This document shows positions 31,101 to 40,100 of a stretch of DNA of 64,000 nucleotides, piece after piece (position 1 is the first letter of the stretch; each line of letters opens with the position of its first letter). Made by a program: the position numbers. This stretch comes from an uncultured Nitrospiraceae bacterium (lineage in GTDB: Bacteria; Nitrospirota; Nitrospiria; Nitrospirales; Nitrospiraceae): contig CAWJWJ010000001.1 in the NCBI GenBank assembly GCA_963846575.1, positions 1,216,001-1,280,000 of the forward strand, read 5' to 3'.

Positions 31101-34100
31101 GCGCGCAGGGAATCCTGCAGGGCGAGCGCCGCATCGCGATTGACCTCTGCCGTATCCAGGTCCTGTTGGGACACGAACTCGTCCTTGATCAGCGCCCGCA
31201 TGCGGTTGAGCGTCAGCGCGGCGTTGCGTACGGCTGCCTCCTGCTGGACGACCTTCGCCTTCGCGGACAACAGATTCGCCTTCGCCTGGTTGACGGCATG
31301 GACATAGTCGGTGTGATCGATTTCGACGAGCAGTTGATTGGCCTTCACCAGGTCGCCCTTGTCCACGTAGATCTTGGCGATATATCCATCCACGCGCGAG
31401 AAGATGTTGACGAGTTGGTTCGGGATGAGGTCGGCGGTGTAGGTCAGCCGCACGTCCAGGTCCTGCCTGACGGGGCTCATGGTGCCGACGGTGAGAATGC
31501 GGTTTTTTCGCGCGTCGGTCTTGGCGCCGCTGCTGAGTCGAAACACGATCAATGCCGTGACGGCCACGAACAGAATGATGCCCAGGATGACGATCGGATG
31601 GCGCTTGATGGGGTTACCTGACACGTGAGGATCCTCGCGGCTTGTTCATGGGCGCACGGGTGAGTCCGTGGAGAAAGAGTTCGACATAGGTGTCCACGAT
31701 TTCTTTGTGAGAGCAATGCAATGGCACCTCGAAGATCTCGTGGAGCAGCCGGTGATGGACCACCATGCCGATGAAGGCTCGTGCGGCCAATAGCGGATCG
31801 ATCGGCCGGAAGACGCCTTCGTCAATCCTGGTCTGAATGTACCCGGCAAGATAATCGTAAAACACCCGGTGTTGTTTGCCGAAAAACATGTCCGCCAACT
31901 CGTGGCCTTCGAGCGCGCTAAAGAGCAGCAGTCGAAGCATTGTGGGGTCGGCACCGGGACGGATACGGTAGCCGGCAATCTGCATAAAGACACCGTAGTC
32001 GTCCCGTTTACGGGCCAGGTGGTCGACGGCGCCGAGCAGTTCGCTGAGCGGAGCCTTTTCCGCAAGGATGGCTGCGTAGAGCGCTCGCTTGGTGGGAAAG
32101 TATTTGAACACCAGAGCCTCGCTGACGCCGGCGGCGCGGGCGATTTCCTTGGTGGTGGTCCCCTTGAAGCCTTTCGCCGCAAACAAGGCGGAGGCTGAAG
32201 AAATCAGGCTGGCCTGTCGATCCCGGCTGGGACTGCGCGCAAGGACGGTGTGTGAACTCATCAGTATCTTCTCGAGGTGAGTGAGTAATCACTCACCGTT
32301 CAAGCTACCACGAGCCTGAATGGCAAGACAAGAATCTCAGACATGCCGCGAAGGCCCGATCCCTGCGAACCAGGTCGGGATGACGCTCCGTCGGTTCCGG
32401 GGCCTGTCCGGCCAGCTTCCCCCATCAAGGCGCGGGGGCGTTGCTTTCATTGAATTTGGCGCGGAACGCCTGACCTTCAAAGAAGATGATCCCTTGGCCG
32501 GTCCGCACATCATACCGAAGGATGATCTCGCTTTCGTCGCCTTGCCAGTCGAAAAACTTGACGGCCCCTCCGGCCATCTGGCCGGGCGTGCGGTCCAATG
32601 GGCCATATCGCTTTTGCAGAAATTCCAGCAGGCGGTCGTGAGTCTCCTTGCCGTTGTATCGCACCGCCACACGGGCAAAGGCTCCATCGACGGTGCTGAA
32701 TCGCATGGAGTCGACGGGACTTGCTCCCAACGTCGGAGAGGGTCCTCTGAGTTCATACGTACGTACGCGGCCGCTGTCTTCGACCTTTGCGAACGTGTCC
32801 GACTCGGAAAAGGCCGCCCCCCAGGGAATGCCTTCGAAACCGTTGGGATCATTCTGCATGGGAACGGCGAGCGCGATGGATGCCGGCAGCCACGCGGCAA
32901 GAACCAGGAACCTGGCGGCAAGAGTGAAGAGATTGCGTGAGGCGGCGGCGCTGTTGTGCATGTTACTCCGCAGTGTCCGCAATCCGGTCCTGGAATCGCG
33001 GGGCCAGGGTGCGGCTCTCGATGAAGATAAATCCACGGTCTCTATTGGCTTCATAAGTCAGGCTGATTTCCGTATCCGCCCCGCGCCACGTATATTGCTG
33101 ATTGAGCCCTCGCATCATCTGACCCGGAATCCGGTCGATCATCCCATAGGAGCGTTCCAGAAATTTCAGCACCTGTGCATGTGTCTGCGCGCCGCGGTAG
33201 CGGACGGTGACACGCGCAAACTGGGCATCGACAGTGGAGAGTTGTATGCTCTCGACCGGAACCCCGGCATAAAGCGGGGGCTGCTCGCGAAATTCGTACT
33301 CCGTGGTGTGGGAATTGGTCCGGGTCACGATGAGGTCGGACATCCCGGCAAGCGGGGTACCCCAGGGAATCTGGCGAAACCCGTGTGGGTCGTCTGCCAT
33401 GGTGATGGCGGATGCCGATCCCGCTGTGGCGGACAGGAGCGCACTGAGAACCAGAACGCGGCCGACCGAACGGATGGGTGACCATATCGAGGATGTGTAA
33501 GGCATGGCCGACAGATCTCGTTTCGCACGCTACCATGGTTGTCGAGCTGACGGCAACTGTCGAGCGGCCGTTCTTGTGAATGCAGGACCCCTTGGCTATA
33601 ATGCGCGCTCTCGTGCGCAGTCCCTCGGGCATTAGAGGCGGGGTTCATGATCGACAGCGACGTATTTGTGCAGGCGCTCCAGGAGATGGGCGTCAATTTT
33701 TTTACGGGCGTGCCCGATTCAATTCTGGGCGGGATCATCGAAGAACTGATGACACGCAAAGCCTATACTCCCGCCGTGCGGGAGGATGAAGCCGTCGCCA
33801 TGGCCGCGGGCGCCTACATGGCCGGAAAGGTACCCGCCGTGCTCATGCAGAATTCAGGGCTGGGCACTTCGCTGAACACGCTGATTTCCCTTAATATGAT
33901 CTATCGGCAGCCTTGTATTTTGCTCGTGTCGTGGCGGGGAGCTCAAGGCAATGACGCACCGGAGCATCTCGTCATGGGAGAGACCATGGTGCCGCTGCTC
34001 GAGACGATGAAGATCCCCCACCGGATCCTGTCGGAGCAAACGATGGCGGATGATTTCCGGTGGATGGGACAAACGTTTATGAAACAGCGCATTCCGCTCG

Positions 34101-37100: not shown

Positions 37101-40100
37101 ACCCGGCTGTCGCGTTCGAGGAAGGCCGGCTCGTTTCTTTCCGTCACGACACGGCCGCTGAAGGCCAGCAGGTAGCCGCCGATCTGGTCGTGTTGCCGGC
37201 GAGTATCCTCAGCCGCCCGGACGGGCCGTCCTCTTCGACCGGTGACGCCGGCTCAGACGCACTGGGGATGGTCCCCGTGCGCCGGTGGCTTGAGCGGGCG
37301 GCGGCCGAAGGTCGGGTGCGGGTTGTGTCGGCCGCATCCCACGCGGGACTTTGGTACCGAGACGTGTGGGACCAGACGAGCGCCGGCATTGCAGAGCGCA
37401 CCCTCTTGCGTTCGCTCAAGGGAGAGGCTGAAGGATTCGTCGACCGGTACTTCAATCGGACCTTCTCCCGGCTGCTGACAAGAGCCTTTCTGTGGATGAA
37501 ATGCTCGCCCAATACGATCACCATGATTGCAACGGCGGTTGGGTTGTTCGCAGCCATCGGGTTCGGGTGGGGGACCTACCAAGCCGGGATCATTGCCGCA
37601 TTGTTATTTCAATTGGCGGCGGTGATTGATTGCTGCGACGGGGAAGTCGCCCGCCTCACCTTTAGCGAATCAGCGTTCGGCGCATGGCTCGACATCACCA
37701 TGGACAATGTGGTGCATATCGCCATTTTCGCCGGGATCGCCTGTGGAGCCTATTTGCGGCAATCCGGAACCGAGGGCGCCTGGGTGCCCCTGGCCCTCGG
37801 TGGTGCGGCTGTATTAGGTAATGTGATGTCCTTCTGGTTGGTGACGAAGGCCCAAAAGATCGGCGCGACGGGGGGCTGGCATACGCCGACACAGGCCGCT
37901 TGGTCTGACTTTATTCTCAAGAACGTTGCCAGCCGGGACTTCTCCGTGGTGGTGCTCCTCTTCGCGATACTGGATAAGCTCGAATGGTTTCTGTGGATGG
38001 CCGCGCTCGGGTCAACGGTGTTTTGGCTGTTGATGGTCTGGGTCATTCGCCCGTCGGCACGCGCTCGTGCTTAAAACCGCGCTCCTGCTCATCGGAGCGC
38101 TGACTCTCTCCCTCCTTGTCTGGCACATCGGCATTGCCCGGATCTATGAGGCCGTGACCCAGTTGGGTCCTGCCGCGATAGGGGCGATTCTTCTGCCTTC
38201 CCTGCTCATGTACCTGCTCGAGGCCTATGGCTGGCGTGTGACGCTCGGCCGGTGGGCGGAGGAGGTGCCGTTCTGGCGGGTGTTGGCGATTCGCACGGCA
38301 GGGGAAGTGGTGAATATGACCACGCCCACCGCCTATGTGGGCGGCGAACCGCTCAAGGCCTACCTACTCAAACGCCAGGGCGTCCCGCTAGTTGAGGGGT
38401 TGGCGTCGGTGGTGACGGCCAAAACCACGATGACTATCGCCCAGATCCTCTTCATTCTGGCGGGAATCGGGCTGGGTTTCTGGCTCTTGGGCTCCGAGGG
38501 GTCAGCGGGTCAGACCATCACGGCTGCCCTGGTCAGCGCCGGATTGCTGGTATTCGGCGTAGGGGCGTTTGTCCTCGTCCAGCGCCAGGGCCTGTTTACA
38601 TGGATGTTACGGGTCTTGCGCCGCGTCGGGATCCGGATTCAGTATCTGGAGTCGCGTGAACAGAAGCTGCTCGAATTGGATCGGACGATTGCTCACTTCT
38701 ATGCCGGGCGACGGCAGGCGTTTCTCTTGTCCACGGGGTTGTTCCTGCTCGGCTGGCTGGCTGAGGCATTAGAGGTGTTTGTGATGGTACTGTGCCTCGG
38801 GCAACCCATCAGCGTCCTGTCCGCCGTGGCTATCGGCGCGCTCTCGGTGTTTATCAAGGGCGGCACCTTTTTTATCCCCGGTAGCCTGGGGGCACAGGAT
38901 GCGGGCAATTTATTGTTGCTGACGGCCTTTGGATACGGGGAAGTCACAGGCATCATGTTCGCGCTTTTGCGGCGTTTTCGAGAATTCGTGTGGATCCTCC
39001 TCGGACTTGCCTGTCTGGCCGTGATGACCAAAGGTGTCGATCGCTCCCTCTCCACCGAGTGACGAGCCCGGCTCCTCGCCTCGAAATTTCCCGTCGAAGT
39101 GCAGAGTGGTGCAGCCACAGCTCTGTCCGATGTGATGAGCGATCGAGGCGAGCCGGGCGTGAACACGCGGCTGCGTCAGTACGAAGCAACCGTCCGCCTC
39201 GCCGTTGAGCCAGGTGTCGTTTCATCGCGATATGTAGCTGAAACCTGCGCGCTACGGTAGAGTATTGCTGCAAAGCGGTTCGTCACGATTCGAACAACAG
39301 TTGACGCAAACGGGAGCGACGCAACTCTAGGAGCGGGTGAGGCCATGGCACGACCGAATAATCCCCGTCCCAAAGATCAGCAGGCCGAGGAACAACAGTC
39401 CAAAGACAGGCCGGCGGAACCGCAAGGTCGACTACTCTTGCCTCCCTTCGATGATCCCGCCGAGGCTGTGAAATTCTGTCGGGCTTTAGCCGCCGCGATG
39501 GATTGCATCTCGCAGGCCGAAGATCATCGCTTACAGCCTGCACATATGTTGGCGTTGATGGCGCAGGCGGAGGAGGCCCTCCCTCCCCCGATGCTGTCGG
39601 TCGTCATTCCGGTGTTCAACGAGGCAGAGAATTTGCCGACCCTGCATGCCCGCCTCACCGACACGCTCAATCGCATGGGATACGATTACGAAATCGTGCT
39701 CGTCGACGACGGGAGCAAGGATCAGAGCCCGGAGATCTTGCGGCGGATGGAACTGGAAGATCGGCGGATCGTTGTCGTGGAGTTTGCGAGAAATTTCGGG
39801 CACCAGGTCGCCATTAGCGCCGGACTCGAGCATAGCCGGGGGCGCGTCGTGTGCATCATGGATGCTGATCTACAGGATCCTCCTGAAGTGCTGCACACCT
39901 TCCTGGCCAAGTGGCAGGAAGGGTGGGAAGTGGTCTACGCCATTCGCACCGAGCGGAAAGAATGGTGGGGCAAGAGGCTCGCCTATGCCGTCTTCTACCG
40001 GCTGCTTCAACGGGTCGCCAATATCGACATACCATTGGATGCAGGCGATTTTTGTATCATGGATCGCCGCGTCGTAGACGAGCTGGTCGGCATGCCGGAA

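Follow-up and report, generated by a model that had tools for sequence, protein, structure and literature searches.

The window analyzed here, a 64,000-nucleotide stretch of the genome of an uncultured Nitrospiraceae bacterium, contains six closely spaced open reading frames, all on the plus strand, which confirmed the operon and its composition as given in the preliminary description. The genes and associated features are as follows.

32262..32424, no strand: unoccupied slot flanked by up2 and tetR; in relatives a 1.7-kb Cys-loop mutase-nucleotidyltransferase gene sits here (synteny)
32425..33054, minus: up2, a paralogue of up1 (38–39% identity), start uncertain (synteny)
32963..33505, minus: up1, conserved, probably exported, family-less companion of the locus (lacks a Pfam match; Nitrospirota-dominated unnamed Atlas clusters; synteny)
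33574..33602, plus: possible sigma-70-like site 5' of the operon, a weak candidate (10/12 consensus matches; 4 sites versus 2.3±1.3 in shuffles)
33647..34144, plus: RhiE/ComD-like alpha subunit, 165 aa, of a predicted phosphonopyruvate decarboxylase (PF02776; TIGR03297 131.8 bits, TIGR03845 105.5)
34141..34719, plus: RhiF/ComE-like decarboxylase beta subunit, 192 aa (PF02775; TIGR03297 173.4, TIGR03846 183.4; top PDB match 9IZ3_B, E 4e-28); an ATGA overlap joins it to the alpha gene
34782..35882, plus: 2-aminoethylphosphonate (AEP) aminotransferase (AEPT), 366 aa (TIGR03301 357.3 against a cut-off of 360.8; orthologue in 118/121 genomes)
35879..36598, plus: stand-alone PntC-like cytidylyltransferase, 239 aa (top PDB match 6PD1; R13, K23 and K153 correspond to Tde-PntC R15, K25 and K153)
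36620..38074, plus: CDP-alcohol phosphotransferase, 484 aa (PF01066; intact DxxDGxxAR-x8-GxxxDxxxD in the membrane domain)
38067..39062, plus: HpnL-like/MprF-flippase-domain membrane protein, 331 aa (PF03706, E 3e-35; TIGR03476 155.3, cut-off 195.65; TIGR00374 above cut-off)

Profile searches placed the transaminase, the decarboxylase and the flippase-family protein each under its curated equivalog cut-off. The scores reported earlier were reproduced, both for the transaminase (357.3 bits on TIGR03301, cut-off 360.8) and for the split decarboxylase, which matched the phosphonopyruvate model (TIGR03297) and the sulfopyruvate models (TIGR03845, TIGR03846), in all cases below cut-off. The beta subunit scored a little higher on TIGR03846 (183.4) than on TIGR03297 (173.4), and the three genes for the decarboxylase and transaminase persist in two mutase-free genomes (G025 and G108), as might be expected if these enzymes act on sulfopyruvate, yielding taurine, or on phosphohydroxypyruvate, yielding phosphoethanolamine, in an operon that has nothing to do with phosphonates. 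We consider this highly improbable. Membership of the sulfopyruvate decarboxylase ComDE is not supported by the sub-cut-off scores, and ComA was absent from 5/5 genomes searched. Among solved structures, the one closest to the beta subunit is chain B of PDB 9IZ3, from the proven split phosphonopyruvate decarboxylase (Ppd) RhiEF, and 70/89 genomes with a canonical PEP mutase (PepM) have no fused Ppd, so that, together with the missing ComA, the concern over sulfopyruvate is weakened. In a rough comparison, the alpha and beta scores together amount to 98% of the Ppd cut-off versus 78% of the ComDE cut-offs. In addition, psd is present in 5/5 genomes, hence phosphatidylethanolamine requires no new route, and a non-phosphonate operon would leave its linkage to, and co-loss with, the mutase unexplained.

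The transferase consists of a degenerate N-terminal nucleotidyltransferase-fold domain and a CDP-alcohol membrane domain. Enzymes of the latter type share the signature DxxDGxxAR-x7-12-GxxxDxxxD, and in the alignment it was invariant in the membrane domain in 25/25 rows (D337, D340, G341, A344, R345, G354, D358 and D362). As described before, residues 241-476 match IPCT/DIPPS. In the structure model (pLDDT 88) the nearest folds were IPCT/DIPPS 4MND (TM 0.67) and AF2299; that the nearest structure is a solute-making enzyme counts against a lipid product. These matches and the two-domain architecture would suit a soluble acceptor, with AEP from the same CMP-AEP joined to a polyol or polyol phosphate as a phosphonate analogue of di-myo-inositol-phosphate-type solutes. 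We regard this as rather unlikely, if the strongest of the alternatives, as the likeness to DIPPS amounts to only ~20% identity, the N-terminal domain is absent from three orthologues, and in most loci a flippase-family gene lies directly 3' of the transferase gene and is lost together with it.

The flippase-family protein itself raises a different acceptor, a hopanoid or other isoprenoid alcohol (e.g., the side chain of bacteriohopanepolyol), which would give a phosphonate-capped hopanoid. The protein is HpnL-like, a squalene-hopene-cyclase-like toroid protein is encoded within the operon in families f3 and f4, the mutase region of G011 includes ispA, hpnA and a second CDP-alcohol transferase (with matching genes in G007), and shc was found in 5/5 genomes tested. 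Nevertheless, the protein falls short of the hopanoid-associated HpnL model (TIGR03476, 155.3 versus 195.65), the toroid homologue is absent from this genome, shc lies on the other contig, and shc is retained in both genomes that lost the pathway. Among the papers listed in a literature search, none reported a phosphonate-capped hopanoid of this type, and we judge this acceptor improbable.

On balance, we favor a pathway in which the operon builds a phosphonate head group, CMP-AEP being made and AEP moved to a membrane lipid that is flipped outward. Phosphonopyruvate would be formed from PEP by a PEP mutase encoded outside the operon, which here is the canonical PepM of contig C2. Roughly one-quarter of the order would instead use a Cys-loop mutase, whose gene lies divergently beside the operon in the window's family. 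By analogy with characterised relatives, the split ThDP enzyme would convert phosphonopyruvate to phosphonoacetaldehyde, pulling the unfavourable mutase step, the transaminase would convert phosphonoacetaldehyde to AEP and the stand-alone PntC-like enzyme would activate AEP to CMP-AEP. The domains fused to both Nitrospirales mutase types lack the motif arginine in the alignment and are, therefore, probably not the active PntC. The CDP-alcohol phosphotransferase would then transfer AEP to an alcohol, with diacylglycerol or a comparable membrane lipid the most likely acceptor, and outward flipping of the AEP-lipid would fall to the PF03706 protein. Genomic evidence moderately favors a lipid as the acceptor and suggests the outward flipping.

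To determine the distribution of the pathway, 121 Nitrospirales genomes, each at least 90% complete, were surveyed. A PepM-clade match was present in 116, an AEP transaminase orthologue (identity of at least 52%) in 118, the stand-alone cytidylyltransferase in 115 and the CDP-alcohol domain in 115, one of these being a 38% paralogue. These frequencies are of a magnitude comparable with the neighbor counts given earlier for 511 genomes. All four occur together in 114/121 genomes, and in 102/104 of the two main families, versus a PEP mutase in only 1/113 non-Nitrospirales Nitrospirota, which upholds the earlier statement that the AEP/CMP-AEP pathway is near-universal in the order. Among the five mutase-free genomes, the stand-alone cytidylyltransferase is absent in 5/5 and the flippase in 4/5. 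The flanking genes are intact around both in-place deletions in G025 and G108. The label "core trait" has exceptions: mutase, cytidylyltransferase, transferase and flippase are all missing from two sister genomes with a completeness rating of 100%. As G025 and G108 keep intact split decarboxylase and transaminase genes and no mutase was found in them, these two enzymes may have another use.

The C2 scores of the preliminary description were also obtained again (PepM 390.9, Ppd 489.1). There the pepM-ppd pair lies 2 kb from an exopolysaccharide (EPS) export cluster, and a second claim was that the pair serves a separate AEP-glycan. A glycosyltransferase island 3' of the operon, between the flippase gene and cstA, would fit such a product, and a flipped AEP-lipid could conceivably serve as periplasmic donor. 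The placement in an exopolysaccharide region is accurate for this genome and confined to its genus: EPS adjacency holds in 3/3 fully covered same-genus loci and in 0/8 pepM-ppd loci of other genera, where the sites are housekeeping ones, and even within the window's genus a convergent LuxR gene separates pepM-ppd from the EPS genes. The flippase-cstA gap that houses the island is short in several relatives. Moreover, fused Ppd occurs in only 19/121 genomes, and one housekeeping site in genus g2 holds pepM and ppd in four genomes and pepM alone in four; fused Ppd therefore looks like a redundant passenger. We consider a separate AEP-glycan very unlikely.

The C2 mutase is canonical, being above the TIGR02320 cut-off (390.9 bits) and containing EDK-X5-NS, as do 20/20 other canonical loci. 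The sub-cut-off Ppm matches mentioned earlier differ from ordinary PepMs; all 28 PepM-clade sequences of this kind in the 121-genome sample proved to contain ED(N/S)-x2-PKRCSF. This Cys-loop form is a PEP-mutase-clade fusion with the loop EDN-x2-PKRCS (Asn122→Cys), and EDK-X5-NS was present in 0/28 in the sample and in 0/80 and 0/80 further loci (both sets from Cys-type queries). It retains the PepM fold and D58, D85, D87, E114, K120, R159 and H190 (Mytilus numbering from the alignment), and its top sequence and fold match is PepM 5UNC (TM 0.95).

The two mutase types almost exclude one another: 88 Nitrospirales have only the canonical form, 27 only the Cys type, and one has both, versus 20.6 expected were they independent (kinship ignored). 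The cultured N. moscoviensis carries the Cys type alone. At least eight switches of type are forced on the operon tree. The slot between up2 and tetR is occupied in 10/10 Cys-type genomes of the window's family and in N. moscoviensis, and 32262..32424 in the window holds no remnant of a Cys-type mutase. G013 has a canonical PepM and, at the slot, what is left of a deleted Cys-type gene, and in G057 the operon cytidylyltransferase has relocated beside the canonical pepM. The Cys-loop fusion is likely the ancestral mutase partner of the operon, and the two-locus layout, presented earlier as a novelty, is a derived state left after replacement of a non-canonical mutase. Because the Cys form is swapped with canonical PepM, its slot is empty here and a decayed remnant persists in a relative, the repeated replacement is a natural experiment that argues for C-P bond formation by the Cys form.

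Could the Cys-loop enzyme instead be a phosphonopyruvate hydrolase, a CPEP mutase or the source of a different decarboxylase substrate, leaving Cys-type strains with another head group or none? The failure of EDK-X5-NS in 28/28, the lyase-like K-R-C, the near tie of the mutase and hydrolase models (276.5 versus 272.9, both below cut-off) and the hydrolase-like KDTS sequences sister to the EDN clade in the tree all point that way, as does a preference for split over fused decarboxylase genes, adjoined in 51/80 and 2/80 loci, respectively, outside the phylum. However, a hydrolase would consume the very compound that the decarboxylase acts on. The Cys form also has Cys for the loop Thr, Lys for Arg188 and 272.9 bits on TIGR02321 against a cut-off of 374.4. 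The loop of CPEP phosphonomutase and methylisocitrate lyase is KRCGH. That of the Cys form is KRCSF, with only 142.6 bits on TIGR02319 and 204.1 on TIGR02317, and a CPEP mutase would depend on C-P bonds formed earlier in the pathway, while over-cut-off PepM was absent in 27 Nitrospirales and in 5/5 further genomes tested. Cys and Asn loops are interspersed within one clade, the best sequence and fold match is a PepM, and the downstream operon is kept where canonical PepM has repeatedly taken the place of the Cys form. Other-phylum neighbors, i.e., transaminase (25), aldehyde dehydrogenase (7) and Fe-alcohol dehydrogenase (1), correspond to known post-Ppd branches. A non-mutase role is consequently unlikely, and from the genomic evidence the Cys form probably has PEP mutase activity, possibly, we speculate, through a phosphocysteine intermediate. 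More tentatively, the Cys122 lineage may be a C-P bond maker in Nitrospirales, myxobacteria, planctomycetes, acidobacteria and soil actinobacteria, present at the root of Nitrospirales, repeatedly swapped for canonical PepM there, and serving an order-wide AEP membrane lipid.

Phosphonate clusters near-universal in Nitrospira are already published at the gene-cluster level (PMC9765116, PMC7298704), as is the Group 1 'CDP-OH' cluster type, and near-universality is thus not new. The less ordinary part of the finding is the pair of interchangeable first enzymes, one of them filtered out by standard phosphonate surveys. Several studies use EDK-X5-NS to count phosphonate producers (PMC6697681, PMC8931226, PMC12723261, Li & Horsman preprint). 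If the Cys form is a working mutase, such counts miss whole lineages and the Asn122 rule for mutase chemistry needs revision; Cys-only N. moscoviensis, its canonical-PepM relatives and the natural loss lineages offer a direct test system. If the AEP lipid is real, it would serve as a biomarker of these nitrifiers, and soil, wastewater and sea would contain a C-P source that has gone uncounted.

Compared with known systems, the Cys form shares its fold and core residues with PEP mutase (TIGR02320; 5UNC, 1M1B) and phosphonopyruvate hydrolase (TIGR02321; 2DUA), but lies below both cut-offs and differs from both at position 122, to which most authors attribute the distinction between mutase and hydrolase (PMC7916636), a point against mutase activity. 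The decarboxylase resembles RhiEF (PDB 9IZ3, its top match; review PMC12141560) and ComDE in being a two-gene ThDP enzyme, whereas it is coupled to AEPT and PntC rather than to rhizocticin or coenzyme M genes, and its substrate is predicted. The 239-aa enzyme has its top solved relative in the PntC-AEPT of the Treponema denticola Pnt pathway (6PD1/6PD2; Rice et al. 2019, PMC6697681), with R15, K25 and K153, whose roles are taken from that paper, conserved; it is stand-alone, without the AEPT fusion, and of predicted specificity. A. fulgidus IPCT/DIPPS (4MND) and AF2299 (4O6M) likewise carry a nucleotidyltransferase-fold domain, joined to a CDP-alcohol phosphotransferase that has the complete signature, but here that domain is degenerate and dispensable, the predicted donor is CMP-AEP and a flippase-like gene follows.

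The closest parallel is the Group 1, or 'Burkholderiales_CDP-OH', ppm neighborhood (Yu et al. 2013, cited in Li & Horsman, bioRxiv 10.1101/2021.04.07.438883), which comprises a Ppm-nucleotidyltransferase fusion, Ppd, AEPT, a second PntC and two phospholipid-type genes. Here the fusion of Ppm to PF12804 is found only at the genome level (PF13714+PF12804 on contig C2), outside the operon neighborhood; Ppd and AEPT homologues lie just below equivalog cut-offs, with Ppd split; the second, stand-alone PntC is present; and PF01066 and PF03706 are the presumed counterparts of the two phospholipid-associated genes. Further differences are the off-site or Cys-loop mutase and the degenerate nucleotidyltransferase domain of the transferase. 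The 2-oxoglutarate/Fe(II) oxygenase of the seven-gene core is absent from the operon and its flanks, so plain AEP is predicted rather than 1-hydroxy-AEP, and the Nitrospirales operon, although it appears to function like Group 1, is outside the core membership. The Group 1 phosphonolipid was predicted more than a decade ago and, according to the preprint and to the 2022 inventory, its product was never isolated and is uncharacterised in Burkholderiales as well; a non-pathogenic order with a like operon in 114/121 genomes is a practical source for finding it.

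Annotation of the window recovered the six open reading frames of the preliminary description, all on the plus strand with overlaps or short gaps between them, and reproduced the scores given there for the PepM fusion (390.9) and the fused phosphonopyruvate decarboxylase (Ppd, 489.1) on the other contig. Pfam and NCBIfam models identified the first two genes as the N and C halves of a ThDP decarboxylase, the third as a class-V aminotransferase (357.3 on TIGR03301, cut-off 360.8), and the others as an NTP transferase, a PF01066 membrane protein and a PF03706 protein. The GC content of the window was unremarkable and a promoter scan gave an outcome near chance. 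The features of the region were as follows:

26220-26660, plus strand: a gene of the S-adenosylmethionine decarboxylase family, neighbouring an SCP2-like gene and in synteny with the locus across several relatives
32425-33505, minus strand: two paralogous proteins (up1 and up2), predicted as probably exported, that accompany the locus
33647-39062, plus strand: the six-gene operon
39345-50451, plus strand: a glycan island flanked by the flippase gene and cstA, with GT2, GT4s, a pyruvyltransferase, a Wzx-type flippase, a LarA-like gene and an FkbM methyltransferase; in most relatives it was not seen here

The closest solved structure to the decarboxylase beta subunit was 9IZ3_B, a part of RhiEF, which is described as a proven phosphonopyruvate decarboxylase encoded by two genes (PMC12141560). 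That of the 239-aa transferase was Treponema denticola PntC, whose R15, K25 and K153 aligned with R13, K23 and K153 of the operon enzyme; loss of these residues in PntC is reported to leave less than 10% of activity (PMC6697681). Since the motif arginine of PntC was absent from the nucleotidyltransferase domains fused to the mutases, the operon enzyme is probably the working cytidylyltransferase. All 25 alignment rows of the 484-aa protein had the complete signature of CDP-alcohol phosphotransferases, and its N-terminal domain was degenerate and missing from three orthologues.

The distribution of the pathway was determined in 121 Nitrospirales genomes of at least 90% completeness. A PepM-clade gene was identified in 116 of these (and in only one of 113 other Nitrospirota), the transaminase orthologue in 118, the cytidylyltransferase in 115 and the CDP-alcohol transferase domain in 115, one of the latter being a paralogue. 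All four occurred together in 114 genomes, including 102 of 104 in the two main families, and five of the seven genomes without the full set were drafts of 130 to 350 contigs.

The mutases fell into two classes. TIGR02320 scored over its cut-off in 89 of the 116 PepM-clade genomes, and this canonical class had the EDK-X5-NS motif in all 21 sequences inspected. The second class, present in 28 genomes and inspected in every one, had the loop EDN-V-(Y/F)-PKRCSF (EDS in one) and is referred to here as the Cys form. It retained the metal and substrate residues and had a cysteine at the position of Asn122, to which most authors, according to a review, ascribe the difference between mutase and hydrolase (PMC7916636). 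PepM 5UNC was its best match by both sequence and fold, and it scored 276.5 on the mutase model versus 272.9 on the hydrolase model. The genomes comprised 88 with the canonical enzyme only, 27 with the Cys form only, one with both and five with neither; the single genome with both compares with 20.6 expected under independence, a condition from which the kinship among the genomes departs. In that genome (L142, G011:C67) the canonical PepM belonged to a cluster of its own, together with an Fe-alcohol dehydrogenase that carries a fused APS-kinase domain; this combination suggests a hydroxyethylphosphonate product for that cluster.

In all ten Cys-type genomes of the window's family, the Cys-type gene occupied a slot between up2 and tetR, adjacent to the operon and divergent from it. 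This slot had no intact gene in the window, nor in a further 12 genomes of the family with the canonical enzyme. An internally deleted remnant of the Cys-type gene was observed in the old slot of one genome (L261:3381-3656, G013) that has a canonical PepM elsewhere. Paralogues of the up1/up2 type were present in one to three copies per locus, accompanied the Cys-type mutase in family f2, and matched no known family in Pfam and a cluster search. Among the 80 best database loci with a Cys-type gene, Nitrospira moscoviensis included, operon genes were seen in 73, and the other seven stopped at a contig edge. The canonical pepM had housekeeping surroundings that varied between genomes, and it branched at four different points of a quick tree with SH-aLRT support only; several origins are suggested for it in Nitrospirales. 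A quick tree was also built from 49 operons picked to cover both mutase states; on it the canonical label needed 12 changes, at least eight of them forced by well-supported branches. The simplest reading is that the ancestral locus was Cys-type, and that canonical pepM was gained repeatedly, often with a passenger ppd, after which the redundant gene was lost.

The fused Ppd was kept in only 19 of the 121 genomes, and at one site in genus g2 four genomes had pepM with ppd and four had pepM alone. The 70 genomes with a canonical PepM and no fused Ppd point to the split enzyme being the phosphonopyruvate decarboxylase. An aldo-keto reductase adjoining canonical pepM in marine genera was considered as a coupling enzyme and rejected, as it was found in five of five genomes, one of them pathway-less; we read it as a neighbour of the insertion site.

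The Cys loop was also seen in some 20 of the 150 best clusters at 50% identity, and on a quick tree Cys and Asn loops were mixed within one clade whose sister was hydrolase-like. A set of 80 loci came from Myxococcota, Planctomycetota, Acidobacteriota, Binatia and other groups. Within 8 kb of the Cys-type gene, 51 of these loci had split decarboxylase genes and two a fused Ppd; the transaminase was found at 25 loci, a CDP-alcohol transferase at 27, an aldehyde dehydrogenase at seven and an Fe-alcohol dehydrogenase at one. A motif scan, in which four of 78 analysed loci were non-mutase genes, also found loci in actinobacteria where decarboxylase and transaminase genes were present. No over-cut-off PepM was identified in five Cys-type genomes checked, including Sorangium cellulosum So ce56 and N. 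moscoviensis, which argues against the Cys form being a CPEP mutase. In the cultured myxobacteria S. cellulosum So ce56 and Minicystis rosea (L185, L206) the Cys-type mutase was accompanied by the split decarboxylase and a cytidylyltransferase; an AEP transaminase was not found within 8 kb of it, nor an over-cut-off PepM. The one candidate for the Cys form in Nitrospina was a single record titled Nitrospinota that is Nitrospirota by GTDB, and a search on the same question with a squalene-hopene-cyclase-like toroid protein gave four close matches, all in Nitrospirales.

The cytidylyltransferase was missing from all five mutase-less genomes and the flippase from four of them. Two, G025 and G108, had clean deletions at both sites and were sisters on the quick operon tree, so their losses count as one event. 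Both are rated 100% complete and had lost mutase, cytidylyltransferase, transferase and flippase; their decarboxylase (two genes) and transaminase genes were still intact (L039, G025:C2; L040, G108:C6), and ComA was sought in both and not found. In G018 (94% complete, 250 contigs) no mutase was found on searching, and its operon (L163, G018:C20) had no cytidylyltransferase and a shortened transferase, possibly decay under way.

The flippase in the operon argues for a lipid as the acceptor of AEP. A second group of HpnL, from AEP-lipid surroundings, is reportedly described under TIGR03476. The model of the 484-aa protein (pLDDT 88) had its best fold matches in IPCT/DIPPS and AF2299, and this predicted DIPPS-like fold would allow a solute. 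A hopanoid acceptor was hinted at by the toroid protein and the hpnA/ispA neighbours in family f3, but this was not borne out in the window's genome. The toroid protein is a single toroid of 325 aa (L034:8370-9353, L036:8564-9541, L235:9669-10652), encoded inside the operon in families f3 and f4 and directly 3' of the Cys-type mutase in Binatia. An AEP lipid as a substitute for PE was rejected, PE synthesis being intact with psd in five of five genomes. G025 and G108 had three PF01066 genes versus five in the other genomes compared; the idea that another CDP-alcohol transferase was lost together with the pathway was dropped, the extra copies having no mutual match at E 1e-15. The proposal that AEP is also placed on a glycan was not supported, as pepM-ppd adjoins EPS genes in the window's genus only, and we found no conserved link of the pathway to glycan genes.

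Phosphonate surveys, including PMC6697681 and the Li & Horsman preprint, use EDK-X5-NS as a filter, and the Acker preprint tolerates up to two mismatches when Ppd is adjacent. Rice 2019 (PMC6697681) reports the removal of 22 fused sequences without the motif, which may include the Cys form. In our literature search, with most subscription papers and the supplements outside its scope, neither a Cys-loop PepM nor the operon pathway in Nitrospira was found described, and the portions of PMC9381506 and PMC10579370 matched by search terms added nothing on either. The Li & Horsman preprint describes a Group 1 'CDP-OH' seven-gene core whose lipid was not characterised, from which the window's operon differs in having no oxygenase. 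The operon is a real, order-wide, Group-1-like AEP operon. Our analysis adds the natural exchange between canonical and Cys-loop mutases, which happened repeatedly; through it, both the product, long predicted, and the predicted activity of the Cys form can be tested directly in a strain that is cultured and harmless.
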